Positions 1 to 53,061 of a stretch of 64,000 nucleotides of DNA are shown here, in pieces. The notes below the pieces were generated by a model. It was not told the DNA's origin, ran no database searches, and saw only the letters and a program-made list of their open reading frames with translations. The DNA is taken from IMG/VR virus record IMGVR_UViG_3300028412_000004, positions 1-64,000 of that record; one strand, 5' to 3'. The DNA is from a virus. Numbering within the stretch: the first letter of the stretch is position 1; every line of letters begins with the position of its first letter. The position numbers were made by a program, and so were the translations under genes.

Positions 1-178
1 AAACTTCATCGAAGGAGTTGGTGGATTCGGCAAATCCCCGCTGCTCGCCCTGCAAAATCTCGTGGAAGAAATCGCCAAGCAGGAAGGTCACCCGTGCGAC
101 GACGCAAAGATATTTCTCCGATGAACATCGAAGTGTCTCATGACTGAGGAACGAAGGAATTTAGACAACTGACTGGTT

Positions 179-472
179 ATGAAAAATTGGACTGAACGAG
201 GACTAGACAAACTATCGCTAAACGTGGCGAACCCAGTGGAACATGCCGCCGAAGAGTATTGGTGTGCTATGAAGATACTAGATGAACGAAACATTCCGAG
301 ATTCTACGAAGACGAAGAGCTTTCCCTTGTGGGGCGTATCGACTTCGCTATGGGCTGTTTTCATAACACCGAGGAAGGCCAGCTGAATGTCGCGGCGAGC
401 GGACAGAAAGAGGACGTTTGCAAGAAATGCGCCGAAATGGAAGAGGCAGTTACCAACTCGCCTACGCGCTAA
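179..472 (+). CDS. hypothetical protein
   Basis: 97-aa ORF in + strand gene chain, no recognised motif. Confidence 0.6.
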   Translation: MKNWTERGLDKLSLNVANPVEHAAEEYWCAMKILDERNIPRFYEDEELSLVGRIDFAMGCFHNTEEGQLNVAASGQKEDVCKKCAEMEEAVTNSPTR

Positions 473-503
473 AAAAATACATCAACACAAAGAAAGATTA
501 ACT

Positions 504-968
504 ATGGCTAATTATTACTGCACTGCACGAACGAACTACTTCATGGTCAAAAGCCTCAAGGAGTTCGCCGAATCAATGTCCCGCTTCGACGTACAAATTA
601 TCTTCGAAGATCGACACTATAAGGAAGAGGAGTTGAAAGCCCACCTGGCTCAGGACATCCCCCACGAGGTCGGGCTATACTCCATCGACGAAAACAGCGG
701 AGACTGGTCCACCATCGACCCGGATGACGAATACTACGACTTGACGCAGGAGGAGAAGGACATGTCCTTCTACGAGATCGTCGCACAGCACCTCACCGAG
801 GACGCTGTTGCGGTGTTCCAGGAGGTTGGCGCAGAGAAGGCCCGATACCTGTGCGGCTACGCCGTAGCAATCCGGCACGACCTGAAGACGCTTGATGTCA
901 GTATCGACGACATCTTTGTCAAGGTGCAGGAACAATGGGGCAAGGAGCCCACACTCTGCCAATACTGA
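504..968 (+). CDS. hypothetical acidic phage protein
   Basis: Start moved from 387 to ATG 504 (AT-rich AACTATG context); MANYYCTARTNYF... Confidence 0.7.
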   Translation: MANYYCTARTNYFMVKSLKEFAESMSRFDVQIIFEDRHYKEEELKAHLAQDIPHEVGLYSIDENSGDWSTIDPDDEYYDLTQEEKDMSFYEIVAQHLTEDAVAVFQEVGAEKARYLCGYAVAIRHDLKTLDVSIDDIFVKVQEQWGKEPTLCQY

Positions 969-1042
969 TGGCGCTACACCGTATGGACGTCGATTACGGA
1001 CGTCTTATAGTAGAGACAAAAATAAAAAGAAAGAGAAATATT

Positions 1043-1438
1043 ATGGGAAGATCAGTAGAAACATCGAGCAGCGCCCTGAGCGTAACGTATACCACCTTTG
1101 AACCGGAGCCCGATGACGAGTTCGAATGGGATTGCTTTGTCGAGGATATACAGGAGTATTTGCCCACCTTTTACCCCTCACTTGAGAAGGCGGACGATTG
1201 GTTATGTTACCCCTACCAGGAGACTGCAATCATCCTGCAGAATGAACAGGTAAATATATGCCTGTCTGAATACTGCGGGGTGTGGGCCATCCAAGTCATT
1301 CCCCGGGAAGATCGAGACGATTCAGCGCTGGTTAAACGTAACGGGACCCTGATCGGGGATCGCATCGAATCAATCTGGGGTCAGCTTAAAAAGCTTGGCT
1401 CTTTTTCCAACGGCGAAGTCGTATTTGCCTCTGCTTAA
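1043..1438 (+). CDS. hypothetical protein
   Basis: ATG 1043 in TATTATG context, in frame with ORF 935. Confidence 0.65.
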   Translation: MGRSVETSSSALSVTYTTFEPEPDDEFEWDCFVEDIQEYLPTFYPSLEKADDWLCYPYQETAIILQNEQVNICLSEYCGVWAIQVIPREDRDDSALVKRNGTLIGDRIESIWGQLKKLGSFSNGEVVFASA

Positions 1439-1579
1439 ACTATCACCAACCACAAACGAAAGAGAAAAATGAATGACCTAATTACATCAAACGCGATCAT
1501 CAACCGTAAGCTCAATCCTACCCGAACGTGGGTTGAGGAAATTTCTTTCTGAGAACCCCGAAGTAATTAAAACAATATC

Positions 1580-2176
1580 ATGAGCAGTAATAAAAAGAAA
1601 TACACCAGAGAGACCGCGGAAACGGCCCTATGCATTTGGGAGTGGGTGCTGGAAAACCGCCTACATAAAGCCAGCCGCAACGTTACTATCGAGACGTGGC
1701 TGTCTAAAGTCGGAGGAACGGTCTCGCTACGGGCGCACGTGTTGCAGCTTGCAGCATTCATGACGCTGTGTGAGCGTGAACTGGAGAAGTCGGAGAATAC
1801 CCTGGATCTATGGATCGCACCATTCGATTGGGAGATCGTTCCTAAAGTTATGGCACGCTACACTTGTGGTGAGTTCCCAGTTACCCTAGATAAAGCGAAG
1901 TTCCAATACGCAGTGGCGTTTACCTACGCCACTCAATACGACAGCAAAACAGGGAAATTCAAAATTCAAATACCATCACTGCGTGGGTGGGCTGATGTAA
2001 AAGTATCGGAGGACGGCGGCACTTATAAGGACAATCACTATGATAGTGCGCGAGAAGCCGGCGAGGAGTTGGATGGTATGATGCAGGATCTACCTGATTA
2101 CGTTGGGCGCGTTGTTACAGCAGACACGGAAGCCGACGAGGACCTATACGATACGGATGATGCAGCGCTACTATGA
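1580..2176 (+). CDS. hypothetical protein
   Basis: 198-aa ORF, ATGA overlap with next gene. Confidence 0.65.
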   Translation: MSSNKKKYTRETAETALCIWEWVLENRLHKASRNVTIETWLSKVGGTVSLRAHVLQLAAFMTLCERELEKSENTLDLWIAPFDWEIVPKVMARYTCGEFPVTLDKAKFQYAVAFTYATQYDSKTGKFKIQIPSLRGWADVKVSEDGGTYKDNHYDSAREAGEELDGMMQDLPDYVGRVVTADTEADEDLYDTDDAALL

Positions 2177-2400
2177 GTGATAAAGTCACATTACTATTCG
2201 CCTGCGACGACGCGCACAAGAGCGACTCTATGTTGCTTCTAGGGTCGGCCTCGGACAGGCAGGAAGCTTATCTACTTCTTACAGGGTTGATCGAGAGGGA
2301 CGGTACCACACCTTTAAGCGCGGATGATGCGCGCCTGTTCCAGCTAATCGGCGAAGGGCAGTTCCACACCACAGAGCTAACAATCGGAGATAAATTATGA
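2173..2400 (+). CDS. hypothetical protein
   Basis: Coupled by ATGA overlaps at both ends. Confidence 0.6.
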   Translation: MSDKVTLLFACDDAHKSDSMLLLGSASDRQEAYLLLTGLIERDGTTPLSADDARLFQLIGEGQFHTTELTIGDKL

Positions 2401-2675
2401 AAATACAAGAAACAAACGAATTGAGCAAACCGACTGGTTCTGTGTCCGATGCAGCAAGGGGCGCAGTGGAGGTCTGTAACAAGACTGGTGTGAATCGAGT
2501 AATACCAGCAATTCACCACGGATGTCTTCGATTCCTTCTTTCAGAGGGTCCGGAGAATGTCGGCGGTATCGTGTTTCGAGACGATACCTATAACTACGAC
2601 GCGCTAAAAAAGCTGGCCGATGAAGTAAACGAAATTCTTACACGGAATAATGGCTTGGAGATATATAGCAAATGA
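2397..2675 (+). CDS. hypothetical protein
   Basis: Coupled by ATGA overlaps. Confidence 0.6.
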   Translation: MKIQETNELSKPTGSVSDAARGAVEVCNKTGVNRVIPAIHHGCLRFLLSEGPENVGGIVFRDDTYNYDALKKLADEVNEILTRNNGLEIYSK

Positions 2676-3211
2676 AACAATCAGAAGACAGAACTATTGA
2701 AGAATGGCATCAAATATTACCTGAAGCGGTGCGAGATATCGCGCTGGAAGAATGCCGCAAACAAGGAATCGATATGTATAGTGTGCGCCCATCGCTAAAG
2801 CAGGCGATTGATACTTTTACCTGGAGCAAAACTTCTCTTGGTTTCGGCTTTTGGGAAGCGATATCCCTACTAGCCTTAGAGTTCAAGCTCCACGCCCCTG
2901 ACTATTCGGATTTCCGGTCCGCCTGCCTCAAGGAACTTCATAGCGTTCAGGGACCCGTCGAGGAGAGCCACGAGAAATCAGCGCTGGAGACCCAGGAAGG
3001 AGGCTCACACTACAAAGACATGAAGATCAAAGTGGTGGAGTATATCGATATCGATATCAATGACATTGACTACCTTTCGGGCAACGTGATCAAATACGCA
3101 TCTCGTCACCGACACAAGAATGGGGCGGAGGATATCCGTAAGGCGATCCACTACTGCCAAATCATCCTTAAGCTGCAATATGCGGAGGACACGGGGGTCG
3201 ATGATGAGTAA
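2672..3211 (+). CDS. DUF3310 (SaV-like) domain protein
   Basis: C-terminal GGSHY...GNVIKYASRHRHKNGAEDIRKAIHY pattern typical of DUF3310. Confidence 0.75.
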   Translation: MKQSEDRTIEEWHQILPEAVRDIALEECRKQGIDMYSVRPSLKQAIDTFTWSKTSLGFGFWEAISLLALEFKLHAPDYSDFRSACLKELHSVQGPVEESHEKSALETQEGGSHYKDMKIKVVEYIDIDINDIDYLSGNVIKYASRHRHKNGAEDIRKAIHYCQIILKLQYAEDTGVDDE

Positions 3212-3467
3212 GGAGGAACCGACCGGATCTATTGGGGTCGGTGATCGCGTAAGGATAATCGGAGGCGGCCCGATGGCGAGAGGGCTTATTGGAGTCGTCC
3301 AGCGTCTCGACACATCACGGCAGGGGCGATGCTACGTCACGTCAGGCGGGAAAATCTCCCTTGGGGTTTTCGACTCCGAAGAATCCGCGAGAGAAGCCTG
3401 TGAAAGTCACTACCTAGCGAACAAAAAGACCGGCGGACACGAGCCGGCAACAATGAAATCTCAATAA
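3204..3467 (+). CDS. hypothetical protein, reads into attC1
   Basis: ATG 3201/3204 overlaps previous stop; C-terminus LGVFDSEESAREACESHYL resembles that of 4913..5170. Confidence 0.6.
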   Translation: MSKEEPTGSIGVGDRVRIIGGGPMARGLIGVVQRLDTSRQGRCYVTSGGKISLGVFDSEESAREACESHYLANKKTGGHEPATMKSQ

Positions 3468-3544
3468 ACCACAAAGATAATATGCAAAAAGAAGATACAA
3501 ACTCACCGCGAGATGAGGGGTTGCTGCCTCCCGAATTGTTAGCC
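3416..3544 (+). other. attC-like site 1
   Basis: AGCGAAC ... GGCAAC/GTTGCT and ATCTC/GAGAT arms ... GTTAGCC; pairing moderate. Confidence 0.6.
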
Positions 3545-3799
3545 TTTGTCCGAGTAATCCCACACCCGTGGAAGACAGGGGAAACGCGCAACGTGTACGA
3601 GTTCCCGGTGACTCGGAAAATCATCATCGAGGCTGATCCAACCATCCCGGCGGATGAAATCCTCGATATGGCGGCTCGCTGCCACGACAGGGAGCTAGGG
3701 TTAGATATTACGGGAGGCGCCCTGGTAGGCGGCTACAAGATGTCTCTTTCTCCGGCTAACACGCAGACTACTCAATCCGACAATAACACCAGAGTATAA
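3482..3799 (+). CDS. cassette ORF, start inside attC1
   Basis: MQKEDTN start shared with 5605; ends inside attC2. Confidence 0.65.
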   Translation: MQKEDTNSPRDEGLLPPELLAFVRVIPHPWKTGETRNVYEFPVTRKIIIEADPTIPADEILDMAARCHDRELGLDITGGALVGGYKMSLSPANTQTTQSDNNTRV

Positions 3800-3880
3800 C
3801 AATATGGGATTAGGAAATATAGACAAAATAACACCAAAGAAACGCCGCGACTCGGATTTGAGTATGTCGGCTGGTTCTAG
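3754..3880 (+). other. attC-like site 2
   Basis: GGCTAAC; TACTCAATCCGA pairs with TCGGAT[T]TGAGTA; GTTCTAG. Confidence 0.8.
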
Positions 3881-4190
3881 GCTGGAACAGGCTATGCTAA
3901 TCCAGCGAGCGATCGACGCTCTAAGGGACTACGATAAACACACCCTGGAGCGCTGCCTCACGCGGGCCCTTTCGGAGGCGGTCAGGAACGCAGCCGACTC
4001 GCAACGCTTAGACTGGCTGCAAGATAACTGTGAGGTGGTAGTCTCGACAAACACGGGAGGCCGAGAGCTTTTCGGTTTTAACGCGCAGATGAGCAGCGAC
4101 TTCCCGGCTCTACGAGAGTTGATAGATGCACAAATTCTTTCCAAGAACACTGAGACCAGACAATCCGCAAACGGAAATAACCATAAGTAA
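3804..4190 (+). CDS. cassette ORF, start inside attC2
   Basis: 128 aa; contains DSQRLDWLQ motif common in small phage proteins. Confidence 0.65.
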   Translation: MGLGNIDKITPKKRRDSDLSMSAGSRLEQAMLIQRAIDALRDYDKHTLERCLTRALSEAVRNAADSQRLDWLQDNCEVVVSTNTGGRELFGFNAQMSSDFPALRELIDAQILSKNTETRQSANGNNHK

Positions 4191-4247
4191 AACACCTAAT
4201 CAATCAACTACCAGCGACTCGGATTTGTCTACATCGCCTGGTTATAA
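4142..4247 (+). other. attC-like site 3
   Basis: CAAGAAC; AGACAATCCG pairs with CGGAT[T]TGTCT; GTTATAA. Confidence 0.8.
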
Positions 4248-4250
4248 ATA

Positions 4251-4508
4251 ATGGCTACAATACAATCTCACCTACAAGAACTCGAAGAATGCCTATCGAA
4301 AGGGCAACTTCTCGACTCGTTTGCCGTGCGGCCTGTGGTGCGCTCGCTAAAGTTCAGTCTGAAACAAATTGAGGCGATGCAAACGGCACTAGCCGACTGC
4401 TGGGAACTGCTCGACGAAGCCGAAAAAGACGAAATTAACATTCGTGACGAAATGGAAAAATGGGAAAGGGCTTACGGTCACTTCCTCCCTTCTAACGATG
4501 AGCACTAG
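4251..4508 (+). CDS. cassette ORF (helical/coiled coil)
   Basis: 85 aa, starts just after attC3, ends PSNDEH in attC4. Confidence 0.65.
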   Translation: MATIQSHLQELEECLSKGQLLDSFAVRPVVRSLKFSLKQIEAMQTALADCWELLDEAEKDEINIRDEMEKWERAYGHFLPSNDEH

Positions 4509-4563
4509 CACGCAGAGAGAGAGGAACTAGCGAAAGGCATTGCCTGGCTCGGGCTTGATTGCC
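4490..4563 (+). other. degenerate attC-like site 4
   Basis: TTCTAAC left core intact; right core reads GATT rather than GTT. Confidence 0.4.
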
Positions 4564-4607
4564 TCTACCATAGATCACGGAATCGGAGCTCAGCTAATGG
4601 CTTTAAT

Positions 4608-4698
4608 TTAGAACGCCGAGTTATCTGACCGCCAACCATAAAACAATAAAATTGAACAAGGACGCTGACTGGCGGTTCAAAGCGACGCCTTGTTCGGG
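4608..4698 (+). other. attC-like site 5
   Basis: TTAGAAC; TGACCGCCA pairs with TGGCGG[T]TCA; GTTCGGG. Confidence 0.8.
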
Positions 4699-4710
4699 AA
4701 TCAAATTATA

Positions 4711-4920
4711 ATGAAAATCGACATAGCGAAAGAAGACCTATGGTGGCTGCGCGAAGCCGTAAAACTATTCATCATCACGATGGAAAATTGCCCGAACCCA
4801 GCGGCGTACTCGAAATGCCCACATGTGGTGAGGAAGGCGTACAAGAAACTCTCGACAGCAATGAGGGGGTGGGATTATGAAGAAAGATATTTTCCGAACG
4901 TGGAGGTGAATCATGCATGA
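4711..4920 (+). CDS. cassette ORF
   Basis: ATG 4711; ends FPNVEVNHA inside attC6. Confidence 0.6.
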   Translation: MKIDIAKEDLWWLREAVKLFIITMENCPNPAAYSKCPHVVRKAYKKLSTAMRGWDYEERYFPNVEVNHA

Positions 4921-4956
4921 GCAGCATACTGGATTGAATCAAGTTCTTGGTTCGCT
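4893..4956 (+). other. attC-like site 6 (short)
   Basis: TCCGAAC ... GTTCGCT, imperfect GAATCA/TGAATC arms. Confidence 0.6.
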
Positions 4957-5170
4957 TTTTTGGAGACGGCGCTCGACTGGAACGCACCGCTATTTGAAAG
5001 TCCTGACGGATAGGGGATGTCGTGAAACTGGCTATTACATCTGGCCACATCTTAACGGAAAAACGTTCCATGCCTGTATCGAAGGTCGACAAGATCTAGG
5101 GAAGTTCAAGAACTCCTTAGAGGCGCAGACTTTTTGTGAGAATCATTACTTAGAGCACTGTGAATACTAA
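4913..5170 (+). CDS. cassette ORF, start inside attC6
   Basis: C-terminus LGKFKNSLEAQTFCENHYL resembles that of 3204..3467. Confidence 0.6.
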   Translation: MHEQHTGLNQVLGSLFWRRRSTGTHRYLKVLTDRGCRETGYYIWPHLNGKTFHACIEGRQDLGKFKNSLEAQTFCENHYLEHCEY

Positions 5171-5522
5171 TACACAGAAAGGCCGGGAGAAACCGACACC
5201 CAGGTACACCTTGCCAAGCCGGCTATCAAACTTCCTGGGAAGGTGGGGCGAGTATGACCTCTACTTCGACTCTGATTGTTGTATTGCTCGCTACGGCGAC
5301 AAGCCTCACGAGTATCTGGCGGGAGACTGGGAGACGTACAAAGAACAGGCACTCAGCGGTCGTGTATCCTTAGAAAACCAACACCGCAGCCCTACACTTG
5401 AGTGCTTCTTCAGGGCTTACCGCAACAAACTAATCATAGAGGTAGAATGCGCTTCGAATGGCAAGGGCGTTGCTCTGCCTGACGGCATACGAAAAGGACA
5501 GGGAGCGGAAAGAGCGCGGTGA
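5160..5522 (+). CDS. hypothetical protein
   Basis: GTG start overlapping previous gene. Confidence 0.55.
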   Translation: MNTNTQKGREKPTPRYTLPSRLSNFLGRWGEYDLYFDSDCCIARYGDKPHEYLAGDWETYKEQALSGRVSLENQHRSPTLECFFRAYRNKLIIEVECASNGKGVALPDGIRKGQGAERAR

Positions 5523-5604
5523 AATACCGCTACGAACAACCTACCCGCTGTAGAACACTACCCCGGTACAGCTACAAAATCTAACAACAAACCAAAAGGA
5601 TAAT

Positions 5605-5967
5605 ATGCAAAAAGAAGATACAAATGTAAATGTAGGCTCGGTAATGGGTCGGCTAGCTCGACTGGTTCGACTGGCAAGTAAATGGGCTTGGCGCGAAGAA
5701 TTAGGACGGTATCAAAACGTCACTGAGGACGCCCAGTCATTAGTTGACGCTCTTATGCGTGGAGAACCGGCAAACGCCTATTGTGGGTATGGTCGATACG
5801 GTCAAGCGTCAAACTACCGCGACGAACTGAAGTGTTCGCTCCGTGACCTGAAGTCGAACGATGAGGAGTTGGTAGCTCCCGCTAGTTATGTGAGACCGTC
5901 CACCCGAGGCGAGCTGCACGACAAGCTAGAACAGGGTATCGAGTGCGAGGTAGAGAATAGTGCTTGA
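5605..5967 (+). CDS. cassette ORF, start in attC-like loop
   Basis: MQKEDTN...RLARLVR leader crosses GTTCGAC at 5665. Confidence 0.6.
   Translation: MQKEDTNVNVGSVMGRLARLVRLASKWAWREELGRYQNVTEDAQSLVDALMRGEPANAYCGYGRYGQASNYRDELKCSLRDLKSNDEELVAPASYVRPSTRGELHDKLEQGIECEVENSA
5630..5671 (+). other. attC-like right arm (left arm decayed)
   Basis: GGGTCGGCTAGCTCGACTG-GTTCGAC; core complementary to GTCGAAC at 5853. Confidence 0.55.
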
Positions 5968-5991
5968 CTACTTAGGCAAACCTAGCATAAT
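5964..5991 (+). promoter_or_regulatory. sigma70-like promoter for tnpA
   Basis: TTGACT-16 nt-CATAAT, 8 nt before ATG 6000. Confidence 0.55.
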
Positions 5992-5999
5992 GTCTGTAA

Positions 6000-6617
6000 A
6001 TGGAGCAGAGATTAATAAAGATAGGGGATGCAGCTAAGCTGTTGGGAACCACCGTAGATACAATGCGCAAGTGGGATGCTTCCGGGGAAGTAGTTCCGGC
6101 GCGTAAGACTAGAGGGGGTACGCGCTACTACGATTACAATGAGCTGGTAGGCAGCTCCTCTAGTGAGCTGCCTACCATATGTTATGCTCGTGTGAGTTCT
6201 CACTCTCAGAAAGATGACCTAGAACGTCAGCACGCATCTCTCGAGGCCTACTGCGCCGCCAAGGGGTGGAGAAGTGAAACAATAAAAGATCTAGGCTCAG
6301 GGATGAACTACCGAAAGCGCGGGCTACATAGCTTGCTAGAAATGATCCTGCGTAAACGCATGAAGCGGCTTGTATTAACACACAAGGACAGGCTCCTGCG
6401 TTTCGGGGCCGAGCTGGTATTCGCTATGTGTGAACACCAAGGCATAGAAATTGTTATAATTCATAAAGGAGAGCAGCCTTCTTTTGAAGAAGAGTTAGCC
6501 TCCGATGTGTTGGAGATCATCACCGTATTCTCCGCGCGTCTGTATGGTTCAAGAAGCCACAAGCACAAGAAGCTACTTAACACTCTGGAGGAAGAATGTT
6601 CGCAGCCCACAAAATAG
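6000..6617 (+). CDS. tnpA: IS607 serine transposase/resolvase
   Basis: N-terminal MerR-type HTH, YARVSS catalytic serine, DRLLRFG motif. Confidence 0.95.
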   Translation: MEQRLIKIGDAAKLLGTTVDTMRKWDASGEVVPARKTRGGTRYYDYNELVGSSSSELPTICYARVSSHSQKDDLERQHASLEAYCAAKGWRSETIKDLGSGMNYRKRGLHSLLEMILRKRMKRLVLTHKDRLLRFGAELVFAMCEHQGIEIVIIHKGEQPSFEEELASDVLEIITVFSARLYGSRSHKHKKLLNTLEEECSQPTK

Positions 6618-7777
6618 AACTACGCCCCACGCAAGCGCAGGCAGACTACATGGATCAGGCGTGTGGCAGCCGCAGGCATTGCTATAACCAGCTCCTAGCA
6701 CGCTTCAAGGAAGACGGTGTTAAGTGGAGTAAGAAGGACGCTTACGCCTACTATATGGAGACCATACGAACACAGTTTGATTGGTATGCGGAGGTGTCAT
6801 CCCGGGTAACCCGCAACGCGATTGATGACCTGGATGCCGCCTTTAAGCATTTCTTTAGGCGCGTAAAGTTGGGGCAGAAGCCGGGGTTCCCTACATTTAA
6901 GCGGAAAGACAGGAATGACTCATTCTCTATGCGTGAAGTTAGTAAGTTCACTGTAGCGGGGAGAACACTGCGTATCGAAAAGCTAAAGACCCGGATTAAA
7001 ATGCGACAACGCATTAGATTTAATGGGGGCGTTAAGCAGGTTACTATCAGTAAGCGGGCAGGTAAATACTTCGCCTCTTTTATGGTAGAGACCGCAGATG
7101 TGTCTGCTCCTCTAAATCAAGCAGGATCTGTTGGAGTAGATCTGGGAATTAAAGAACTTGCTGTATTAAGCGATGGGGCGGTAATCCCAGCTAGTCAGCC
7201 TTTAAAAAGATCCTTAAAGAAATTAAAGACAAAACAGAAGAAGTTGTCACGTAAGCAGAGTGGAAGCAACCGACGCGCAAAAGCCAAGTCGTCGATTGCC
7301 CTACTACATTACAGGGTGGCAAATCAACGAGCAGCAGTGTTGCACGAACTATCAGACTATCTAACGAAAACCTACAAGCGCGTAGTGCTGGAGGATCTAA
7401 ACGTCAAAGGTATGGTTAAAAACCATTGCCTGGCTCGTGCGATATCCGATGCAGGGTTTGGGATGTTTCGACAGATGGTTGAGTATAAAGCCAAATGGCG
7501 CGGGGTGGAAGTTGTCCTTGCAGACAGGTTCTTCCCTTCAAGCAAAACTTGCTCTGATTGCGGCGCGGTAAAGTCAATGCCCTTAAACCAGAGAACCTAC
7601 GAATGTTCGTGCGGTATGTTGAAGGACAGAGACTTAAACGCAGCAATTAACTTAAACAATTACGGTCGCGACACGCTAAAGCGAGACCTTAAACGAACAC
7701 AGGAGAAACGTCAGACTTGCAGAAATGTAAGCCGTTTTGTTAACGGTGTTAATTTACCAACGGCTAGATTAGCCTAG
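6596..7777 (+). CDS. tnpB: TnpB RNA-guided endonuclease
   Basis: RuvC motifs GVDLG, LEDL, DRDLNAAIN; Zn finger CSDCG...CSCG; catalytic residues intact. Confidence 0.95.
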   Translation: MFAAHKIELRPTQAQADYMDQACGSRRHCYNQLLARFKEDGVKWSKKDAYAYYMETIRTQFDWYAEVSSRVTRNAIDDLDAAFKHFFRRVKLGQKPGFPTFKRKDRNDSFSMREVSKFTVAGRTLRIEKLKTRIKMRQRIRFNGGVKQVTISKRAGKYFASFMVETADVSAPLNQAGSVGVDLGIKELAVLSDGAVIPASQPLKRSLKKLKTKQKKLSRKQSGSNRRAKAKSSIALLHYRVANQRAAVLHELSDYLTKTYKRVVLEDLNVKGMVKNHCLARAISDAGFGMFRQMVEYKAKWRGVEVVLADRFFPSSKTCSDCGAVKSMPLNQRTYECSCGMLKDRDLNAAINLNNYGRDTLKRDLKRTQEKRQTCRNVSRFVNGVNLPTARLA

Positions 7778-7815
7778 GTAATTATTAGCGGTTCTAAATC
7801 GACAACACTACGACT

Positions 7816-7959
7816 ATGAAATACAGCAAAGAGGTGAAATACAAAGGCGACATGCCGCAAAAGTCGGAATGGATGCTCGAAAATGAAAGACGATTTAAGC
7901 GCCGCCGCAAGATCATAAAGCTTTTGAAGCGGCTGCCATACCTACGGCCTTTAATTTAG
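7816..7959 (+). CDS. 47-aa basic cassette ORF
   Basis: MKYSKEVK...RPLI; TAG overlaps attC7 left core; ACTATG start context. Confidence 0.5.
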   Translation: MKYSKEVKYKGDMPQKSEWMLENERRFKRRRKIIKLLKRLPYLRPLI

Positions 7960-8077
7960 AACGCATGAGTGAACCCATCCCCCGACGAAAAACTATGAAA
8001 ACAGAAACGACTACCGAATCACCCGAAACTGCGACCTCTCCCGAAAAGGGGGATTGGCGTTCCACGTCTTGTTCGCT
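7956..8077 (+). other. attC-like site 7
   Basis: TTAGAAC; GAACCCATCCCCC pairs with GGGGGAT[T]GG[C]GTTC; GTTCGCT. Confidence 0.85.
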
Positions 8078-8441
8078 GTTCCGCGTCATTGTGCTTCACG
8101 GGGCACCAAAAGACTCCCACACATCGACCGAATGCTATTTGATCGCCGCCAGCGAGGAGGCTGTCGCCGCGTGGATCGACAAGGAAAAATGTTACGGCAA
8201 CTGGTTCGACGATGACGCCGAAGATGAACCGTCTATGCGCTACGCTGACGACGACTACGAGACAGAAATCCCCTTCAAGGATTGGGTGCTGAAAAACCGG
8301 GGGGATCTCAGCGACGATGAAGGCTGGGAGGATGCTTACTACGGCGTAACCAAGTGGGGATGGGAACCAGTCGAGGCAACTACCGACGACATCGAAACCA
8401 TGTTGCGCCTCGGAATCGCAATTCTCCCAGCGAACGCCTAG
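7995..8441 (+). CDS. acidic cassette protein, start inside attC7
   Basis: AACTATG at 7995, in frame with ORF 7965; stop inside attC8. Confidence 0.7.
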   Translation: MKTETTTESPETATSPEKGDWRSTSCSLFRVIVLHGAPKDSHTSTECYLIAASEEAVAAWIDKEKCYGNWFDDDAEDEPSMRYADDDYETEIPFKDWVLKNRGDLSDDEGWEDAYYGVTKWGWEPVEATTDDIETMLRLGIAILPANA

Positions 8442-8527
8442 CTCTGCCATGACTACCGCGCCCAAAAGCTCCGACCTCGCCAATGACTCCTTCGCGGTAG
8501 CCATTGGTCAGCAGCGTCTTGTTCGTC
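8429..8527 (+). other. attC-like site 8
   Basis: AGCGAAC; CTG-CC-ATG-ACTACCGCG pairs with CGCGGTAG-C-CAT[T]GG[T]CAG (two extra-helical bases); GTTCGTC. Confidence 0.9.
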
Positions 8528-9183
8528 ATCTTGATTTATTCAGTGGGATCGGCGGATTCGCACTCGCTGCAAAATGGTGCGGATGGAAAACAATCGGATT
8601 CAGCGAAATAGAACCTTATGCAATACGAACTCTTCAATCAAACTGGCCAACCGTCCGAAACCACGGAGACATCTGCAAAATGCGAGGTGTCGAATGTGAC
8701 ATCATCACGGGAGGATTCCCGTGCCAGCCATACTCCGTCGCAGGGAAAAAACTCGGATCAAGTGACCCTCGCAACCTCTGGCCTCAGATGCTTAGAGTCA
8801 TCCGAGAATCAAGACCCGCTTGGGTTATTGGCGAGAACTCTCCTAACATCCGAACGATGGCACTCGACAAGATCATCTCTGACTTGGAGGCGGAAGGCTT
8901 CTCCTGCCAAACATTTGATATACCAGCTTGCGGCGTCGGGGCATGGCACAAGCGATCCCGATACTGGGTTGTGGCCTACTGCGAGCGTAACGACAACAGG
9001 GGGGCGACTGTCCTCGGTGGAGGGTCGGGAAACAAGAAGAAATTACAGAGATGGGGGCTGGCGAAAATGGCTACGGGGATAGTGAACCCGCAGTGGCTAG
9101 AATGGTTCATGGGGTACCCAACCAATCACACCGCTTGCGAGGACTCGGTAACGCAATCTTCCCCCAAGTCGCCTACGAAATAA
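8449..9183 (+). CDS. C5-cytosine DNA methyltransferase, motifs I-VIII plus IX-like; motif X lies in another frame
   Basis: DLFSGIGG, GGFPCQPYS, GENS, HKRSRYW, NPQWLEWFMGYP. Confidence 0.9.
   Translation: MTTAPKSSDLANDSFAVAIGQQRLVRHLDLFSGIGGFALAAKWCGWKTIGFSEIEPYAIRTLQSNWPTVRNHGDICKMRGVECDIITGGFPCQPYSVAGKKLGSSDPRNLWPQMLRVIRESRPAWVIGENSPNIRTMALDKIISDLEAEGFSCQTFDIPACGVGAWHKRSRYWVVAYCERNDNRGATVLGGGSGNKKKLQRWGLAKMATGIVNPQWLEWFMGYPTNHTACEDSVTQSSPKSPTK
8618..9082 (+). CDS. alternative-frame ORF inside methylase (beta-polypeptide-like)
   Basis: 154 aa in +1 frame with ...SLTWRRKASP...GLWPT pattern; translation uncertain. Confidence 0.45.
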   Translation: MQYELFNQTGQPSETTETSAKCEVSNVTSSREDSRASHTPSQGKNSDQVTLATSGLRCLESSENQDPLGLLARTLLTSERWHSTRSSLTWRRKASPAKHLIYQLAASGHGTSDPDTGLWPTASVTTTGGRLSSVEGRETRRNYRDGGWRKWLRG

Positions 9184-9242
9184 TGCGCGGAATTTCTCTG
9201 ACGAACGCTGAGCTTTCGCACAAGGAACGCCGCTGCGAATAG
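9051..9242 (+). CDS. methyltransferase C-terminal segment (motif X)
   Basis: RMVHGVPNQSHRLRGLGNAIFPQVAYEI; frame open from 8991. Confidence 0.7.
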   Translation: MGAGENGYGDSEPAVARMVHGVPNQSHRLRGLGNAIFPQVAYEIMRGISLTNAELSHKERRCE

Positions 9243-9255
9243 CGGTCGGTTTTTT
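9200..9255 (+). other. attC-like site 9 (shortened)
   Basis: GACGAAC; TTCGCA/TGCGAA; GTT at 9249. Confidence 0.55.
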
Positions 9256-9276
9256 GAGCTTTAACCAAACAAAACT

Positions 9277-9750
9277 ATGATACAAATAACCAAATCCGCC
9301 ACCGCAGACACACGGACCTGCGACTTCGCCAACACCGACAAGGAAACACTCCTCACCTCCAGCCGCACTCATATCAGTGACGTTGTAAAGGCTATGGCGT
9401 TCTTCATCGCCAAGCTCACGGAAGCAGCCGGGGAGCATGACTACGACAAGTTAACGGCCATCGACTGGTTCCATGAGGACTTTGTGACAGGCTTTAAGGA
9501 AACGGGATGGTGGGACAATCACCGGAAAATCCACCGCCACCATCTCGCGAAAGCGGACGGTGTGCCGGAAGACGTGAACCTGCTGGACGTGATCGAATAC
9601 ATCTCCGATTGCGTCATGGCTGGGATGGCTCGCAACGGAGAAGTCTATGACCCGGTCGCATCACCCGAGCTGTTGGAGCGAGCCTTCAAAAACACGGTTG
9701 CTATGCTGCAGGAGGAAGTCGTGGTCTCTGATTCGGAGCTGTCATCGTAA
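9277..9750 (+). CDS. conserved phage protein, His-rich, possibly HD-like (DUF5662-like)
   Basis: HDYDK...HRKIHRHH...DVIEYISD. Confidence 0.55.
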   Translation: MIQITKSATADTRTCDFANTDKETLLTSSRTHISDVVKAMAFFIAKLTEAAGEHDYDKLTAIDWFHEDFVTGFKETGWWDNHRKIHRHHLAKADGVPEDVNLLDVIEYISDCVMAGMARNGEVYDPVASPELLERAFKNTVAMLQEEVVVSDSELSS

Positions 9751-9814
9751 ATGGATGGCTACTACGCATCACCACCAACCATTAAAATAAACACTAAATT
9801 GAACTTGGAACGGG

Positions 9815-9845
9815 CAGTCGGTTGGTCTGCGCCGCCTTGTTCGCC
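9815..9845 (+). other. attC-like right arm, last site of array
   Basis: GGTTGGTCTGCGCCGCCTT-GTTCGCC; left arm decayed near 9727 (GATTCGGAGCTG). Confidence 0.5.
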
Positions 9846-9853
9846 TTATTATT

Positions 9854-10126
9854 ATGAACAACTTAGAAACATGTGAATTTATAGAAGCTACCTCCATTGT
9901 CCCGCGTGAGTGGGATATGTGGTTCTGGGCTTTAATTAGCGTTAACGCTCCGTTCAGCTGGGGCGACAACAACCGCTCTATGGTGACGGCCAGTGATTTC
10001 CGGCGACACTGTGATGATCGCCTTCTTGACGCAGCCGACGACGAAGACGTCTCTCAGGGAGCCATAGACAGCTTCTTGAAGCGTCTTGAAGATCTTGAAG
10101 AGACCTACATTGATCTGGAAAATTAA
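9854..10126 (+). CDS. hypothetical protein, paralog of C-terminal part of 12943..13446
   Basis: FSWGDNNRS...TYIDLEN shared. Confidence 0.7.
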   Translation: MNNLETCEFIEATSIVPREWDMWFWALISVNAPFSWGDNNRSMVTASDFRRHCDDRLLDAADDEDVSQGAIDSFLKRLEDLEETYIDLEN

Positions 10127-10158
10127 CTCTGCCGGATGCGGCGTTGGAAAATATACAC

Positions 10159-10632
10159 ATGAATAAAGAAAAAACAAATAGGACCCAGGCGCTGGCTAGG
10201 CTTCAAATCCAGATTGCGGATTGGATAGGCGATCACCTCGGCGAGCACCCGCACCACCGCGATGCTGCTGCGCTCGCTATGGCACGTGTGGCTTTAGCGG
10301 CGTGGGAAAATGACCGGGGCAGATATCCATCACCTAAGAAAGATAATAGTAAACGACTGCGGGAGTGGAGTATGGAAGCATATGGGCCGAAGGATGCCTT
10401 ACGCTCATCCTTACTCGCATCCTCCTATCTAAAACAGGTGGCGGACGCATATGAAGCAGATTTCTGCCGCAACCTATGTTACAAGCCTCAATCTATAAGG
10501 GTGGAGGTCGACAAGGTCCTACAGCATGTCAAATCCTGGCAAGAGTTCTTCAAAGAAACCTACACCACGGAGCACGCTGTATACAATCTGCACTTCTGCT
10601 ACATAACTGATGTAGCAGAAGAATCAAAATAA
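10159..10632 (+). CDS. hypothetical protein
   Basis: ATG 10159, in frame with TTG ORF 10144. Confidence 0.6.
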   Translation: MNKEKTNRTQALARLQIQIADWIGDHLGEHPHHRDAAALAMARVALAAWENDRGRYPSPKKDNSKRLREWSMEAYGPKDALRSSLLASSYLKQVADAYEADFCRNLCYKPQSIRVEVDKVLQHVKSWQEFFKETYTTEHAVYNLHFCYITDVAEESK

Positions 10633-10805
10633 AATTATGAACACAAAACAGAAAGAACTATGAAATTATCCGCGCGCTGGAAAATCAGCTTAGACCTGGT
10701 CCCGTATTACTTCACTTACAAGGACGGCACGCGGACTGCCGCGGATTTCACCGCCTTCGACTTGAAGATCAAAACGAGGTTTAAGCAGAGGCAAGACAAG
10801 TAATT

Positions 10806-12134
10806 ATGGCTACAACCAATATCACACTAAGTAAGGAGCAGGAGATGGTAGGGGAGATGGCGCGCAAAGGAGACAATCTCTTCATCACAGGCTCCGGCGG
10901 CGTCGGCAAGACCGCCCTACTACAGCACATGATCCGAAAGACACTCGGACACCTCAACGTAGAGGTGACAGCCCTTACCGGCGTAGCAGCTCTACCGATC
11001 GGCGGGACAACGCTCCACAGCTTCCTAGGGATACGTCCAGGCGACTACACCCCGGAGGACTATGTCTGGCAGGCCCGCGCAAAGAAACAAGCCAAACAGC
11101 GTATGCGAAACGCAGAGGTCCTGGTCATCGACGAGATATCGATGTGCGATGCTCAGCTACTCAACGTGGCCGACTTCGTGCTGAAATCTATCCGTGACAG
11201 CACCGAACCATTCGGCGGCGTCCAGCTCATCCTACTCGGCGACTTCCTGCAACTCCCACCCCCGGAGAAGGACTACACGCTGTGCTACGAAGCTCAGGCG
11301 TGGCGACAAGCGAAGATAAGAATCTGCGCCCTCAGGCAAGTGTTTCGGCAGGAAGACGAGGAGCTTATCGGACACCTAAACGCAGTCCGCATGGGCTCTA
11401 TCGGCACGGATACGACGATCTACTTCCAGCAGTTCGTACGCAAACCACAACCCGACGACCTCGTGACAGAGCTCTACGCCCATAACTCCGACGTCAATCG
11501 CCGGAACGCGGAAGAGCTCGCCAAGTTGCCTACGAATCTGCGTACCTACACGGCTCTCGACGAGGGTAACCCCTGGGCGATGAAGTTCCTGCAAAAGAGC
11601 TGCATCGCACCGACCGAGTTAGAACTCAAAGTCGGTGCTCGGGTAATGCTCCTGAAAAACCGCCCAAAGGAAGGCCTCTTCAACGGATCGATCGGCACAG
11701 TCGTCAAGCTGGAGCACGACCACGTCGTGGTAAACTTCCGCGTACGTGGAAGGCTAACAGACGTGAAGATAGGCACAGACACATGGGAATACATTGCTCG
11801 GGGAATCAGGGAGGCGTCGCGTGAGCAGATACCGCTACGGCTGGCCTACGCGCAGACGATCCACAAGTCGCAGGGACAGACACTACAAGCTGCCTACGTC
11901 GACATGGATAAGATCTTCGCACAAGGCCACGGATACACCGGGCTGAGCCGTATATCGAGGCCTGAGGGGCTGCACCTCTCCGGCTTCAACAGCCTCATGG
12001 TGAAAACCTGCGCCCGGACGGTGGAGCTATACCAGCTGATAGATAAAAAAGAGCCTGGCTTCTGTCTAGTAGACACGGATGCCAGCGTTAAACTGAAAGA
12101 AACCTATAAACACCCGGAGCAGCACATGGTCTAG
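10806..12134 (+). CDS. Pif1-family SF1B DNA helicase
   Basis: GSGGVGKT, VIDEISM, GDFLQLPP, QVFRQ, QIPLRLAYAQTIHKSQGQTL, YTGLSR. Confidence 0.95.
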   Translation: MATTNITLSKEQEMVGEMARKGDNLFITGSGGVGKTALLQHMIRKTLGHLNVEVTALTGVAALPIGGTTLHSFLGIRPGDYTPEDYVWQARAKKQAKQRMRNAEVLVIDEISMCDAQLLNVADFVLKSIRDSTEPFGGVQLILLGDFLQLPPPEKDYTLCYEAQAWRQAKIRICALRQVFRQEDEELIGHLNAVRMGSIGTDTTIYFQQFVRKPQPDDLVTELYAHNSDVNRRNAEELAKLPTNLRTYTALDEGNPWAMKFLQKSCIAPTELELKVGARVMLLKNRPKEGLFNGSIGTVVKLEHDHVVVNFRVRGRLTDVKIGTDTWEYIARGIREASREQIPLRLAYAQTIHKSQGQTLQAAYVDMDKIFAQGHGYTGLSRISRPEGLHLSGFNSLMVKTCARTVELYQLIDKKEPGFCLVDTDASVKLKETYKHPEQHMV

Positions 12135-12942: not shown

Positions 12943-13446
12943 ATGAAAGAAGATAGAAATAAAAACCACTACCGCACACGGTTTGTGCTAAAGTCGGACT
13001 GCAAGGAGTACTGCCGGACGTATTTAGTGGAGGATAGGACAGCAGCGTTAGAGGCGCTTGAGGCCGACCACCCAGGAGACGTATCCTGGGTAGAGACTTC
13101 AATCTTACAAAAAGTCTTTGCGCCTGCTGCAGTCATGCGCGCATGTTCGTTCGTGGAAATCAGCGATTTATTACCCATGTATTGGGCAGAATTATGGTAT
13201 GCTATCCTCGAGAACGGTGCGTTCTCCTGGGGTGATAACAATCGATCCCTGGTGACAGCTAGATCTTTACGAGAGCATATCTCTAGCAGCTTCACATATG
13301 ACCTGTCCGCGCCTATATCTGAAGACGGGATTTCTGCGGTTATCAAACTTGAAGGGGTGTCGCAGCCTATAGTTTACGATGAATTCAAGCTTTTCATGAA
13401 TACTCTCGAGGAGCTTGAGGATACTTACATAGACCTGGAGAATTGA
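12943..13446 (+). CDS. hypothetical protein, paralog of 9854..10126
   Basis: FSWGDNNRS...TYIDLEN. Confidence 0.7.
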   Translation: MKEDRNKNHYRTRFVLKSDCKEYCRTYLVEDRTAALEALEADHPGDVSWVETSILQKVFAPAAVMRACSFVEISDLLPMYWAELWYAILENGAFSWGDNNRSLVTARSLREHISSSFTYDLSAPISEDGISAVIKLEGVSQPIVYDEFKLFMNTLEELEDTYIDLEN

Positions 13447-41595: not shown

Positions 41596-42747
41596 ATGAC
41601 ATCCGTAGATTCAGTAGAAAACGTAGATACGCCTAAACCTAAGCTGACAGGCCCAGCCGCGATTGAGCACGCGCTCACTGGCCTTGATCTTGGTAAATTG
41701 GAGGCGGAGCAGCGCGACATTATTAATAAGAAGCTGGTATCCAAAAGACCTAAGGCTGTGCAGGTGCTTAACGTTCTGGAAGGTCTGAAGCGTAACAACG
41801 TGCAGCCTACTGACTTTCTTATAAAGAACGTCCCTGTGATTCCATCTGAGTTTAGACCGTTCACTGCTATGGGAAACACTTTTGTAGCTGGCGACGCTAA
41901 TGAGCTTTACCGGGACTTAATTGATATGCGAGACGCCCACCGCGAGGAGCGCAGTGTTTTTGGGGATGAGGGTGCAGGGGACTCTAGGATGGGACTCTAT
42001 AACGCGGTTAAAGCGACTTACGGCTACGGAGACCCCGTCAAGACAAAGACCCGGCAGCGCGGTGTGTCAGGGTTTCTTAAAAAGGTAACTGGTAGTAATC
42101 CTAAACATGGTTTTTTCCAGCAGAAGCTTATAGGTAAGACGCAGGATAATGTAGCACGCGGGACCATCGGCGTTAATCCTGACCTCTCCATGGACCAGAT
42201 CGATTTACCTAAAGACATGGCTTGGCGTATGTATGCTCCTTACATTCAACGTAGGCTTGTGCGGGCGGGTGTTGGACCTATGGATGCCATTAAAGGTATT
42301 CGTGATAGAACACCTCTAGCAGAGCGGGCGCTGCAGAAAGAGGTCGAGGAGCGACCGGTTATTTACTCTCGATCGCCAAGCTGGCATAAATACAACGTGC
42401 TCGCAGGACGTCCTAATCTGATCGACGGGGATGCTATCCGTATTAATCCATTCGTAACAACAGGTTTAAATGCTGACTTCGACGGCGATGCCATTAATGT
42501 GCACGTCCCTAGTGAAAGCGAGGTGGTAAAAGAAGCTCTAGAAAAGCTGGCACCTTCAAAACAACTCCTGTCTACGCGAGATCCTACGAGGGTTGTTCCT
42601 TCCTTAAAGCACGAACAGATACTCGGGCTCTACACGGCGAAGCACCGCAAAGGGAACAAGTTTCAATTTTCATCCAAGGAGGCGGCGCTGGCTGCTATCA
42701 AACGAGGTGAAGTATCTCTCAACGATGACATCGCTATAATGAGTTAA
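41596..42747 (+). CDS. rpoC: RNA polymerase beta-prime catalytic segment
   Basis: VPVIPSEFRP, DANELYR, SRSPSWH, NADFDGD. Confidence 0.96.
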   Translation: MTSVDSVENVDTPKPKLTGPAAIEHALTGLDLGKLEAEQRDIINKKLVSKRPKAVQVLNVLEGLKRNNVQPTDFLIKNVPVIPSEFRPFTAMGNTFVAGDANELYRDLIDMRDAHREERSVFGDEGAGDSRMGLYNAVKATYGYGDPVKTKTRQRGVSGFLKKVTGSNPKHGFFQQKLIGKTQDNVARGTIGVNPDLSMDQIDLPKDMAWRMYAPYIQRRLVRAGVGPMDAIKGIRDRTPLAERALQKEVEERPVIYSRSPSWHKYNVLAGRPNLIDGDAIRINPFVTTGLNADFDGDAINVHVPSESEVVKEALEKLAPSKQLLSTRDPTRVVPSLKHEQILGLYTAKHRKGNKFQFSSKEAALAAIKRGEVSLNDDIAIMS

Positions 42748-53000: not shown

Positions 53001-53061
53001 ACCTCGTCTAGCAAGAGGGACAGAGTTCGGCAAGGATGTCGCAACAACAGGTAAATTTTAA
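50056..53061 (+). CDS. rpoC: RNA polymerase beta-prime C-terminal segment with intein
   Basis: SGARG, bridge helix GART...TARGG, DCG, RSPLTC...C..C, trigger loop AAQSISEPVTQ|...HTGG. Confidence 0.93.
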   Translation: MKAVDLLIDSLLPEELQGTVKDMDSKSLDILMSAIATKYPDKYEAISKGIADAGRNASYLQGETITLNDMRTPFDKSSILAAMDKELDRVRQANPETFPKTRVKVWEKYNDIMQNMTSQSAREKNNNLAYSVVSGARGKPAQLKAMLATPGYYADYKGDTIPLFVRNSFGQGLRPAEFLAGTYGARTSVLSTKNSTARGGDFAKQLGQSAASTIVTMLDCGVKNGIDLELEDSSMRGRVLARSTAGVPAGTILDKHALGQLRRSKSDTAVVRSPLTCQAREGVCAKCVGQFHNNKLPSVGDAVGITAAQSISEPVTQGALNCLAENTEVLMGDFSYKKIQDVRVGDMVMGADVEAHLFPVKVTHTWDQGLQPVQTYGYKLGQTKDIREVVCTEEHKILQITTYSNAKEGKFNFTPRILKAGRPAGLPSAVLPSGFKEGVGIEEDFATLYGFHLGDGIRLSPECLQASVCVSCACSETAADLKTEMAKLGLTMKKRKRSHDWAVSDLQKGTSLVDAKGQFEKGFHNRYKLLLQSLGALHECYHNKVIAPVVWEWDNKSIAKMIAGFVSADGSVYRVKELTPGVSFGSTALSMLEELKRLLELRFGIYSTQLTRTSLASKSETRKHDGWQFCITRRDQLKKFNELIAPFIPGPKREKLRQYLEEAPKSHYETSTFYKGRRIYAEPKGMTQCYDITVDHKDHLFVLRNGLIVSNSKHTGGMASGKREYSGFDVINQLVQSPEVFPDRATVAHEAGRVESITEAPQGGFYIKLNGKDLYVPAGYDVTAKVGDKVEAGDQLSDGIVDPEDIMKLRGLGSGRRYYAERLNKALTDSGMAVDRRNVELVSRGAFDHVKIQDDEGMPGYLPDDVVSYNKLTSHAAPAKDAKGMRPSQAVGKFLATPALHYSIGTKITPRMADRLEKSHYDSIYTSDREPSFTPQSVRLRTAAHSNPDWLASMATSYLKTQLEHAAIRGDDTNVNSNVHFGPRLARGTEFGKDVATTGKF
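51019..52188 (+). mobile_element. intein with LAGLIDADG endonuclease (residues 322-711)
   Basis: CLAENTEV; GFHLGDG and GFVSADGS; YDITVDHKDHLF...VSN then Ser. Confidence 0.92.

Follow-up and report, generated by a model that had tools for sequence, protein, structure and literature searches.

Can a phage hold its accessory genes in the kind of cassette array that an integron builds? The question is raised by a locus at 3.4–9.9 kb in the window analyzed here, the first 64 kb (positions 1–64,000) of the linear, 125,531-bp IMG/VR virus record IMGVR_UViG_3300028412_000004, whose completeness is estimated at 66%. A first-pass annotation, made from the sequence alone, had noticed about 11 co-oriented imperfect palindromes at this locus and had interpreted them as attC-like sites of gene cassettes inserted by an integron integrase (IntI) that is probably encoded by a host or elsewhere. 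This central claim is supported by covariance models of attC sites, by natural variants that differ by precise cassettes, and by a cognate integrase in another phage (contig L023). With a probability of about 0.85, the locus represents, in a large phage, a cassette array of the integron type that has no own integrase, i.e., a cluster of attC sites lacking integron integrases (CALIN). Its repeating unit is an attC-type site of ~40–130 nt plus one small gene, sometimes two.

Core complementarity and cassette-precise exchange

Eight pairs of GTT and AAC cores had been listed in the first-pass annotation, and all of them were verified in the window: 3538/3754 (7/7 matches), 3874/4141 (7/8), 4241/4490 (6/7), 4692/4891 (8/9), 5665/5853 (7/7), 7791/7954 (9/9), 8071/8428 (8/8), and 8521/9199 (8/8). 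Bare GTT..AAC 8-mers were rejected as stand-alone evidence, as they are frequent by chance; within 900 nt, 22 such 8-nt inverted repeats were counted in the genome and five in the region (vs. ~1.8 expected). Significance therefore rests on sites defined by their context or by a model. Between 2431 and 9833, the + strand contains nine copies of the context motif CGNCT[GT]GTT, from which the variable core is excluded. In the remaining 115 kb of the contig, it was found twice on the + strand and three times on the - strand. The AAC cores have a common context as well, with a TTCTCC-like run ahead and G.TGAG behind.

A cassette's first core had been predicted to complement the core at the end of the same cassette rather than that of its neighbor. 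Across ten site pairs in the window, the variable core positions were complementary within the own cassette at a mean of 3.8/5, compared to 1.4/5 for non-own core pairs and 1.2/5 for the two cores of one junction (permutation p < 1e-5). The same footprint was found in 11 arrays, where 49 of 58 cassettes had an R' tail that complemented the R'' of the following site at every position (mean over all cassettes 3.69/4). The corresponding values were 1.87/4 for R' tail and R'' within one site and 1.75/4 for random pairs, of which 4% were perfectly complementary. The tail of a core belongs to the neighboring cassette and complements that cassette's own inverse core. The two outer cores of a cassette are complementary because both formed one R box in the circular cassette. 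Further own-complementary pairs lie to the left of the reported region, at 176/365 (GTTATGAAAA/TTTTCATAAC, 10/10) and 2437/2692 (GTTCTGT/ACAGAAC). Both have the ...CTGGTT context of the array, which may reach the left end of the contig, near position 176.

Cassette-precise differences in related sequences, proposed as a check by the first-pass annotation, were found exactly at the cores. Another assembly (L080) is 100% identical to window positions 7268–8435 (1168 nt) and diverges immediately after ...CAGCGAAC. Beyond this breakpoint follow another short attC-like site and a gene that the genome of the window's phage does not contain. As the flank is identical throughout its length, the swap points to a recent event in the window's own lineage. 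The contig of an unrelated phage (L083, with ERF and RusA genes) contains window positions 8433–9207 at 99.6% identity and no other window sequence. The common piece extends from an AAC core through the attC-type site 8429–8527 and a methylase gene to the next AAC core. It is located at a plain ...GGATAA|C GTGG... site, and no array was recognizable by eye in its flanks. Furthermore, the gene family of the open reading frame (ORF) 7965–8441 is found in arrays L012 and L013 with its own core pair kept and with neighbors that differ from those in the window on both sides. The core pair in L012 exhibits a compensatory G>T/C>A change (GTTCGCTTT with AAAGCGAAC). The breakpoints of L080 and L083 are at the conserved triplet, as expected for mobile units. 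Taken together with the changed neighbors of the ORF-7965 family, they locate the exchange in the AAC of the left core.

The crossover is at AA|C of the left core on the + strand. Each cassette begins with the C of an AAC and ends with the AA of the following one, and the attC site travels with the gene that follows it on the + strand, in agreement with the prediction for AA|C cleavage of the bottom strand. The earlier placement of the crossover at G|TT of the right core referred to the wrong strand: as the genes lie on the bottom strand of attC, the crossover is AA|C and not G|TT. The complementarity prediction is symmetric and therefore holds despite this correction. Similarity among the junctions did not link them to either the upstream or the downstream gene; the assignment was settled by the breakpoints of L080 and L083.

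attC-type sites and the genes between them

On the minus strand, the sites have the layout of attC: NNNNAAC, an unpaired spacer of 5–6 nt, a bulged stem, a variable loop, a second spacer, and GTTNNNN. The core definition used for attC was AAC and GTT cores 57–141 nt apart with the consensus RYYYAAC/GTTRRRY. In the window, AAC and GTT do not vary; the firm sites are 91–127 nt long (41–129 nt with the weak ones included). In four junctions (3754–3880, 4142–4247, 7956–8077, and 8429–8527), pairing is better between the two own arms than between arms of different junctions. Their extra bases are exclusively on the GTT arm, at positions 15/16, 20, and 22–24 from the 3' end, counted by hand against published definitions and the aadA7 bottom strand; the extrahelical bases of the attC bottom strand are G16, T20, and T23/24 (PMC5027507). 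Thus, an unpaired 5–6-nt spacer and extrahelical bases on one arm, at the positions of a bottom-strand attC, were both found. In 14 aligned sites, A is invariant at top-strand position 22/23. The spacers near the cores (+ strand AAC-GCTGAG ... CGNCTT-GTT) are near-identical to the bottom-strand spacers of Vibrio and class 1 sites, and the + strand of the window therefore corresponds to the attC bottom strand. The count of about 11 palindromes with extra bases on the right arm held in part. Five junctions are firm attC-type sites and three are weaker; the rest are degenerate or interrupted.

Reference attC sites for covariance models were taken from the phage records named in Qi et al. 2023 (PMC9892861). 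The set comprised 16 Vibrio-type sites beside IntI in phage Va_90-11-286_p16 (L001), the class 1 array estX-psp-aadA2-cmlA1-aadA1-qacH in a P1 phage (L005), and the sites of phages TJE1, H101, and P12002L. Model R1, built from Vibrio attC only, was too specific: it gave no match in the window and found three class 1 sites at 15–24 bits. Model R2 was built from 13 short canonical sites (class 1 and published phage) with R-box and L-box structure and was run with filters off; the default filters gave no match in the window or the IMG/VR loci. R2 generalized to Vibrio sites outside its training (14–32 bits). Homologues of ORF 7965–8441 had led to other phage contigs, including L008 and L009 with the same architecture and different cores. 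R2 matched junctions in L009 at 27.8, 25.9, 22.9, and 22.5 bits and one in L008 at 20.7 bits. Each of these matches was full-length and on the strand that does not carry the genes; sites in other array-bearing contigs scored 20–28 bits. Its two best full-length matches in window 1–12000 coincided exactly with 8429–8527 (12.8 bits, below significance) and 7956–8077 (7.1 bits), both on the minus strand.

Model R3 was derived from 15 sites picked by R2 in eight other contigs, with none from the window. It matched the five firm sites of the window at 22–42 bits, at full length and all on the minus strand. On canonical sites, R3 gave 30–50 bits (class 1), 15–36 bits (TJE1), and 14–36 bits (the 16 Vibrio-phage sites). 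It also detected attC arrays beside intI in Verrucomicrobiaceae, Acinetobacter, Azospira, Planctomycetota, and other loci. At the loci fetched via IntI, 41 of 42 matches were on the opposite strand to intI. As a detector of attC sites, R3 is valid, and the adjacency of its matches to IntI genes is independent evidence. In its training alignment, compensatory changes were present in 13/13 stem pairs and 94.7% of the cells were paired, compared to 32–44% for the whole structure with slid partners. Within a site, most outer R-box positions were unpaired, in line with a tail that comes from the neighboring cassette.

In all eight cases counted (8/8), AAC is either read in frame as Asn by the upstream ORF or comes immediately after the in-frame stop of that ORF. 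The attC loop carries the stop of the preceding gene plus the ribosome-binding site and start codon of the next one, and the reading frame passes through the GTT core, the gene body, and the next AAC (Asn) into the neighbor's attC. N-terminal leaders of ~20–35 residues and start signals are located within the loop, for instance the repeated ATGCAAAAAGAAGATACAAA. In the ORF-7965 family, the conserved core begins 2–3 residues past the GTT core and ends ~4 residues before the AAC core, and members outside arrays have their own start and stop codons at those points. The match of the ORF-7965 product to PHROG 25048 begins at residue 38. In L010, L011, and L014, the gene family is present without such sites. 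Judged from these frames, the cassettes would be expressed as read-through fusions. For cassette bodies in viral arrays, the bottom strand is open throughout; it was better than the top strand in 29 and worse in 1 of 52 cassettes. The bacterial integron L070 showed the opposite trend, with the bottom strand better in none and worse in three of five.

Integrase source and competing explanations

Since no intI was found in the 125,531-bp contig, the array is a CALIN and not a complete integron. The sole recombinase in the contig is the serine TnpA of an IS607-family element, and with Pfam no recombinase was found adjoining the L008 and L009 arrays. A complete system was found in the phage contig L023 (IMGVR_UViG_3300020048_000345). 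Its phage genes code for a small terminase, a helicase, and a tail protein, and its 322-aa integron integrase reaches 281.2 bits with TIGR02249 (cut-off 265). An attI-like site, ...CAACT G|TTCTGTG, is adjacent, ~40 nt from the integrase start codon. Next to this site is an N6/N4 methylase cassette, the attC of which begins CACAGAAC, and further cassettes include those for a Mom-like protein and another methyltransferase. The sites of this array score 40–70 bits with R3. DNA-modification genes are among the cassettes of both L023 and the window. Four more viral contigs carry IntI at 69–75% identity, and arrays were found in two of them; two contigs from Verrucomicrobiota metagenome-assembled genomes carry IntI at 78–79% identity. 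The nearest clearly bacterial IntIs are ~45% identical and come from Verrucomicrobiota. In the stretches fetched, the IntI-bearing contigs had no other genes in common with the window's phage, and the system has therefore spread across unrelated phages.

We infer that an IntI-type tyrosine recombinase acts on the DNA of the window's phage, where it would excise and insert cassettes. The enzyme could be supplied by a co-infecting integron-bearing phage, by a host integron, or by an unassembled part of the phage genome. The array would be transcribed within the rightward early region of the phage and would serve as an exchangeable store of accessory genes. Going further, we lean slightly towards an integron lineage adapted to phage genomes, whose arrays would be maintained by the phage-encoded IntI group (69–79% identity within the group). 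Its genes would lie on the recombinogenic strand without ends of their own, with ribosome-binding site, start, and leader supplied by the attC loop, and its cassettes could be expressed anywhere in a rightward operon. Cassettes, among them those with DNA-modification and thus anti-restriction genes, would be traded in this way between unrelated phages, some of which, large ones included, would have only an array and borrow the integrase.

Several observations weigh against the assignment. Neither a tyrosine recombinase nor an IntI remnant was found in the 125,531-bp contig with the PF00589 profile and tblastn with phage IntI, in a search that covered a contig estimated to be 66% complete. The absence noted for the window in the first pass thus extends to the whole contig. 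An attC covariance model, the check suggested in that pass, had a divided outcome: the scores of R3 stand beside those of the canonical-only R2, whose best match in the window has an E value of 0.33. R2 had served both to select and to align the training sites of R3, so that the reciprocal scores are partly dependent on each other. Most R boxes read GTTC/GAAC and not GTTRRRY/RYYYAAC. The fourth core base is mostly C across arrays (GTTC in 53/69 sites), a deviation also seen beside IntI in a bacterial integron (Verrucomicrobiaceae). When folded by minimum free energy, the junctions do not exceed shuffled sequences in stability (z -2.3 to +2.1), because large loops dominate. The junctions 3416–3544 and 5550–5671 are degenerate, and the unit 4899–5555, which has no attC, is irregular. 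Finally, three assemblies of the window's phage are collinear, so that rearrangement is not frequent, and mobility is deduced from natural sequence variants.

The alternative that survives best is a fossil array, built by IntI in an ancestor or another replicon, with sites that are now inert and kept for their translation signals. A contig without IntI, several degenerate junctions, and an IS607-family element in the place of one attC favor such a relic, as do a frameshifted methylase gene and the collinearity of three assemblies at 99.99% identity. Against it stand the cassette-precise swap in L080 beside a perfectly matching flank, a methylase cassette 99.6% identical in an unrelated phage, and five well-formed sites. 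We regard this explanation as unlikely.

Homologous recombination between conserved intergenic boundaries, without a site-specific recombinase, could also shuffle genes. Homologous junction pairs do flank unrelated genes (3462–3501/5585–5624, 93%; 3847–3879/4214–4246, 82%), and conserved N-terminal leaders recur. The precedent is the promoter/stem-loop (PeSL) cassettes of T4-type phages that Arbiol, Comeau and Krisch reportedly described in 2010. These are said to bracket small early genes in a hyperplastic region and to carry expression signals, to have led to the postulate of single-gene circles, and to be direct repeats acting through homologous recombination. Unlike the window array, PeSLs are not known to have cassette-specific complementary cores, attC geometry, or a link to IntI. 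Homologous recombination leaves the complementarity of cassette-specific cores within each cassette unexplained, together with breakpoints exactly at AAC between flanks without homology, the match to attC models, and the adjacency of IntI in L023. It is a very improbable source of the array.

The hairpins could instead be RNA-level elements for translational coupling, RNase processing, or termination, with a convergent likeness to attC. They are bulged and lie on the coding strand, the left arm of 8429–8527 holds the methylase start codon, and 9200–9255 resembles an intrinsic terminator. Start codons have no fixed position relative to the arms, though, and neither gene-spanning core complementarity nor cassette-precise transfer is predicted, which leaves this explanation with a minimal probability; an RNA role could exist alongside the recombination role. 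A movement of the cassettes by the IS607-family serine recombinase (6000–6617) is equally implausible: it is the sole recombinase in the array, but serine recombinases use double-stranded sites with a 2-bp crossover and not folded bulged hairpins, no such gene was called in the fetched stretches of L008, L009, L012, and L013 (where no resolvase search was made), one array has IntI beside it, and the element looks inserted into the array.

Inventory, setting, and relation to known integrons

The sites described below are on the minus strand and the cassettes on the + strand, with R3 scores throughout. A run of cassettes occupies 3424–5858, with AAC cores at 3422, 3758, 4146, 4494, 4610, 4897, 5554, and 5857 and the ORFs 3482–3799, 3804–4190, 4251–4508, 4711–4920, 4913–5170 plus 5160–5522, and 5605–5967. 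Its first junction, 3416–3544, is weak or degenerate (9.2 bits, E 0.7; AAC core CTAGCGAAC, GTT core GTTAGCC). Within its loop are the ribosome-binding site and the ATG of ORF 3482, and the loop has 93% identity with 5585–5624 (repeat family D2). Site 3754–3880 (22.2 bits, E 3e-4) shows arm pairing, with a 6-nt unpaired spacer per arm and extra bases at GTT-arm positions 16 and 24; compensatory changes distinguish it from its homologue 4142–4247 (30.6 bits, E 2e-6). Site 4608–4698 (35.0 bits, E 2e-7) is located ahead of ORF 4711–4920 and behind a gene-less remnant between two AAC cores (4496–4611). The degenerate junction from AAC 5554 to GTT 5665 (5550–5671) has no model match, and its loop is common to 3416–3544.

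The IS607-family insertion (5968–7790, approximate ends; + strand; PF00239, PF00376, PF01385, and PF07282) consists of a MerR-resolvase TnpA (6000–6617) and TnpB (6596–7777). It occupies the expected place of an attC between AAC 5857 and GTT 7791. At its ends, ACCTAG(G)C(A)TAAT lies in an imperfect inverted repeat. If the element were absent, the flanks would give ...GTGCTTG GTTCTAAAT, like the usual ...CTKGTTC context. Removing the element by eye restored no recognizable attC between 5857 and 7791.

To the right of this insertion, site 7956–8077 (37.4 bits, E 4e-8) belongs to the cassette of ORF 7965/7995–8441. This cassette, an attC with a phrog_25048-family gene, spans 7962–8434; it starts with the C of AAC 7960 and ends with the AA of AAC 8433. 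Its own cores are GTTCGCTG and CAGCGAAC, and its right boundary is fixed by L080. Site 8429–8527 (41.5 bits, E 4e-9), with extra bases at GTT-arm positions 16, 20, and 23, opens the cassette 8435–9205 of a C5 cytosine methylase (PF00145; own cores GTTCGTCA and TGACGAAC), which is delimited by the L083 copy and on its left side also by L080. A short attC-like site at 9200–9255 (15.7 bits, E 0.015) precedes ORF 9277–9750. The array ends on the right with a weak attC-like hairpin at 9805–9845 (10.7 bits, E 0.28); no complementary AAC core was found downstream of its GTT core GTTCGCC.

The first-pass description of the cassettes as carrying phage-type genes (methylase, small proteins) needs a correction: the methylase is the sole cassette product with an assignable function, and its gene is frameshifted in the window. 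The frameshift in ORF 8449–9183 is in the G run 8993–8999, and motif X goes on in the frame of 9051–9242. This run has 6 G in the window vs. 7 G in the intact 265-aa methylase of L083. The collinear 161-kb assembly (L081) has the same 244-aa methylase gene call. The gene could be a pseudogene or contain a slippage-prone tract.

All long reading frames of the contig are rightward. Its genes include split multisubunit RNA polymerase beta-type genes, an NAD-dependent ligase, a Pif1 helicase, and two tRNAs, a set that identifies a large phage. Matches to the split beta-type subunits of large phages were found at window positions 37081–40035, 41596–42747, and 50056–53061, and the phage probably carries its own multisubunit RNA polymerase. 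Two further assemblies, one of them the 161-kb contig, are collinear with the window at 99.99% identity and begin at most ~340 bp from its first base; the complete genome is probably ~190 kb. An Rfam scan at gathering thresholds gave the two tRNAs and nothing else. Near relatives were not found by megablast against phage records, with the Pif1 protein in IMG/VR, or with two exact junction patterns. To the right of the array, ORF 9854–10126 (90 aa) is homologous to the C-terminal part of the 167-aa ORF 12943–13446 (38% identity, E 1e-18); the two are ~3 kb apart and both terminate in ...TYIDLEN. Outside the window, in the second half of the genome (~83,830–83,960 of the contig), a short BLAST word recurs at alternating 18- and 12-nt intervals, which hints at a tandem repeat.

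Further arrays came from IMG/VR, where a scan for the site pattern gave 21 matches; about a third of these were single sites or had no array. Five contigs (L020, L022, L028, L031, and L032) with one identical single site (20.0 bits with R3) and no surrounding array were set aside; the site is probably a conserved element of one phage group and not an attC array. One of the 11 arrays is in a complete 62-kb phage genome with terminal repeats and has at least nine sites; no credible tyrosine recombinase was found in this genome. The 4068-bp contig L021 (IMGVR_UViG_3300021075_000209) is made up almost completely of nine cassettes, with the same 98-nt attC at both ends (5–102 and 3946–4043, 77 bits each). 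It could be an array that was assembled as a circle or with collapsed repeats.

Phage CALINs have already been reported, in the virulent phages TJE1, PH101/H101, and P12002L (Qi et al. 2023, PMC9892861). As in the window, attC sites are found there between co-oriented small phage genes, the genomes are without IntI, and DNA methyltransferase cassettes occur. The tested bottom strands of H101 and P12002L are on the gene strand as well. Those CALINs have 2–4 short sites (50–70 nt) with canonical GTTRRRY cores, whereas the window has about a dozen units with sites of 40–130 nt and mostly GTTC. Frames through both cores, starts inside the attC loop, and cassette-precise natural variants also set the window array apart. 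The integron of L023, which has the relatives L038 and L039, shares with the window array the own-core complementarity, genes on the attC bottom strand, and DNA-modification cassettes, and it differs by its own integrase (TIGR02249) and attI-like site.

Sedentary chromosomal integrons (the Vibrio array L001 and L070 of Verrucomicrobiaceae bacterium E54) resemble the window array in their long arrays of mutually similar attC sites. Their spacers (AAC-AAGGCG ... GCAGC-GTT) nearly match those of the window-type sites, and their R' tails also complement the R'' of the next cassette; L070 has GTTC and GTTG cores, too. Unlike the window array, they are bacterial, have IntI adjacent, and carry genes mostly on the attC top strand, with starts and stops of their own within the cassette (L070). 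According to a preprint by Loot et al. (bioRxiv 10.1101/2022.09.11.507474), integron cassettes also insert outside att sites, at attG sites. The lone methylase cassette of L083, outside any array recognizable by eye in its flanks, is as expected for such off-site insertion by IntI; the L083 event is deduced from sequence and concerns a phage genome rather than a bacterial chromosome. After the cassette, L083 reads AAC GTGGCCT GTTCAGCC (2990–3030), with an AAC and a GTTC core 7 nt apart. This pair may be a secondary insertion site or an attC remnant.

Integrons are known as a bacterial system of gene capture and reshuffling, and the earlier phage reports in the literature searched concern short attC clusters or host integrons captured by temperate phages. 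The array size, the inverted open-ended cassettes, the starts embedded in attC, the phage IntI group, and the natural exchanges were not found described there. About a dozen cassettes, evidence of exchange at single-base precision, and a phage IntI together indicate that phages routinely use integron recombination for their accessory regions. The inverted layout, with genes on the folding strand, frames through the cores, and starts in attC, is a design not seen in bacterial arrays, and it makes the expression of cassettes in a phage operon directly testable. The site model provided here can be used to detect such arrays in viromes. For phages, the array represents a concrete route by which methylases and other counter-defense genes pass between unrelated genomes.

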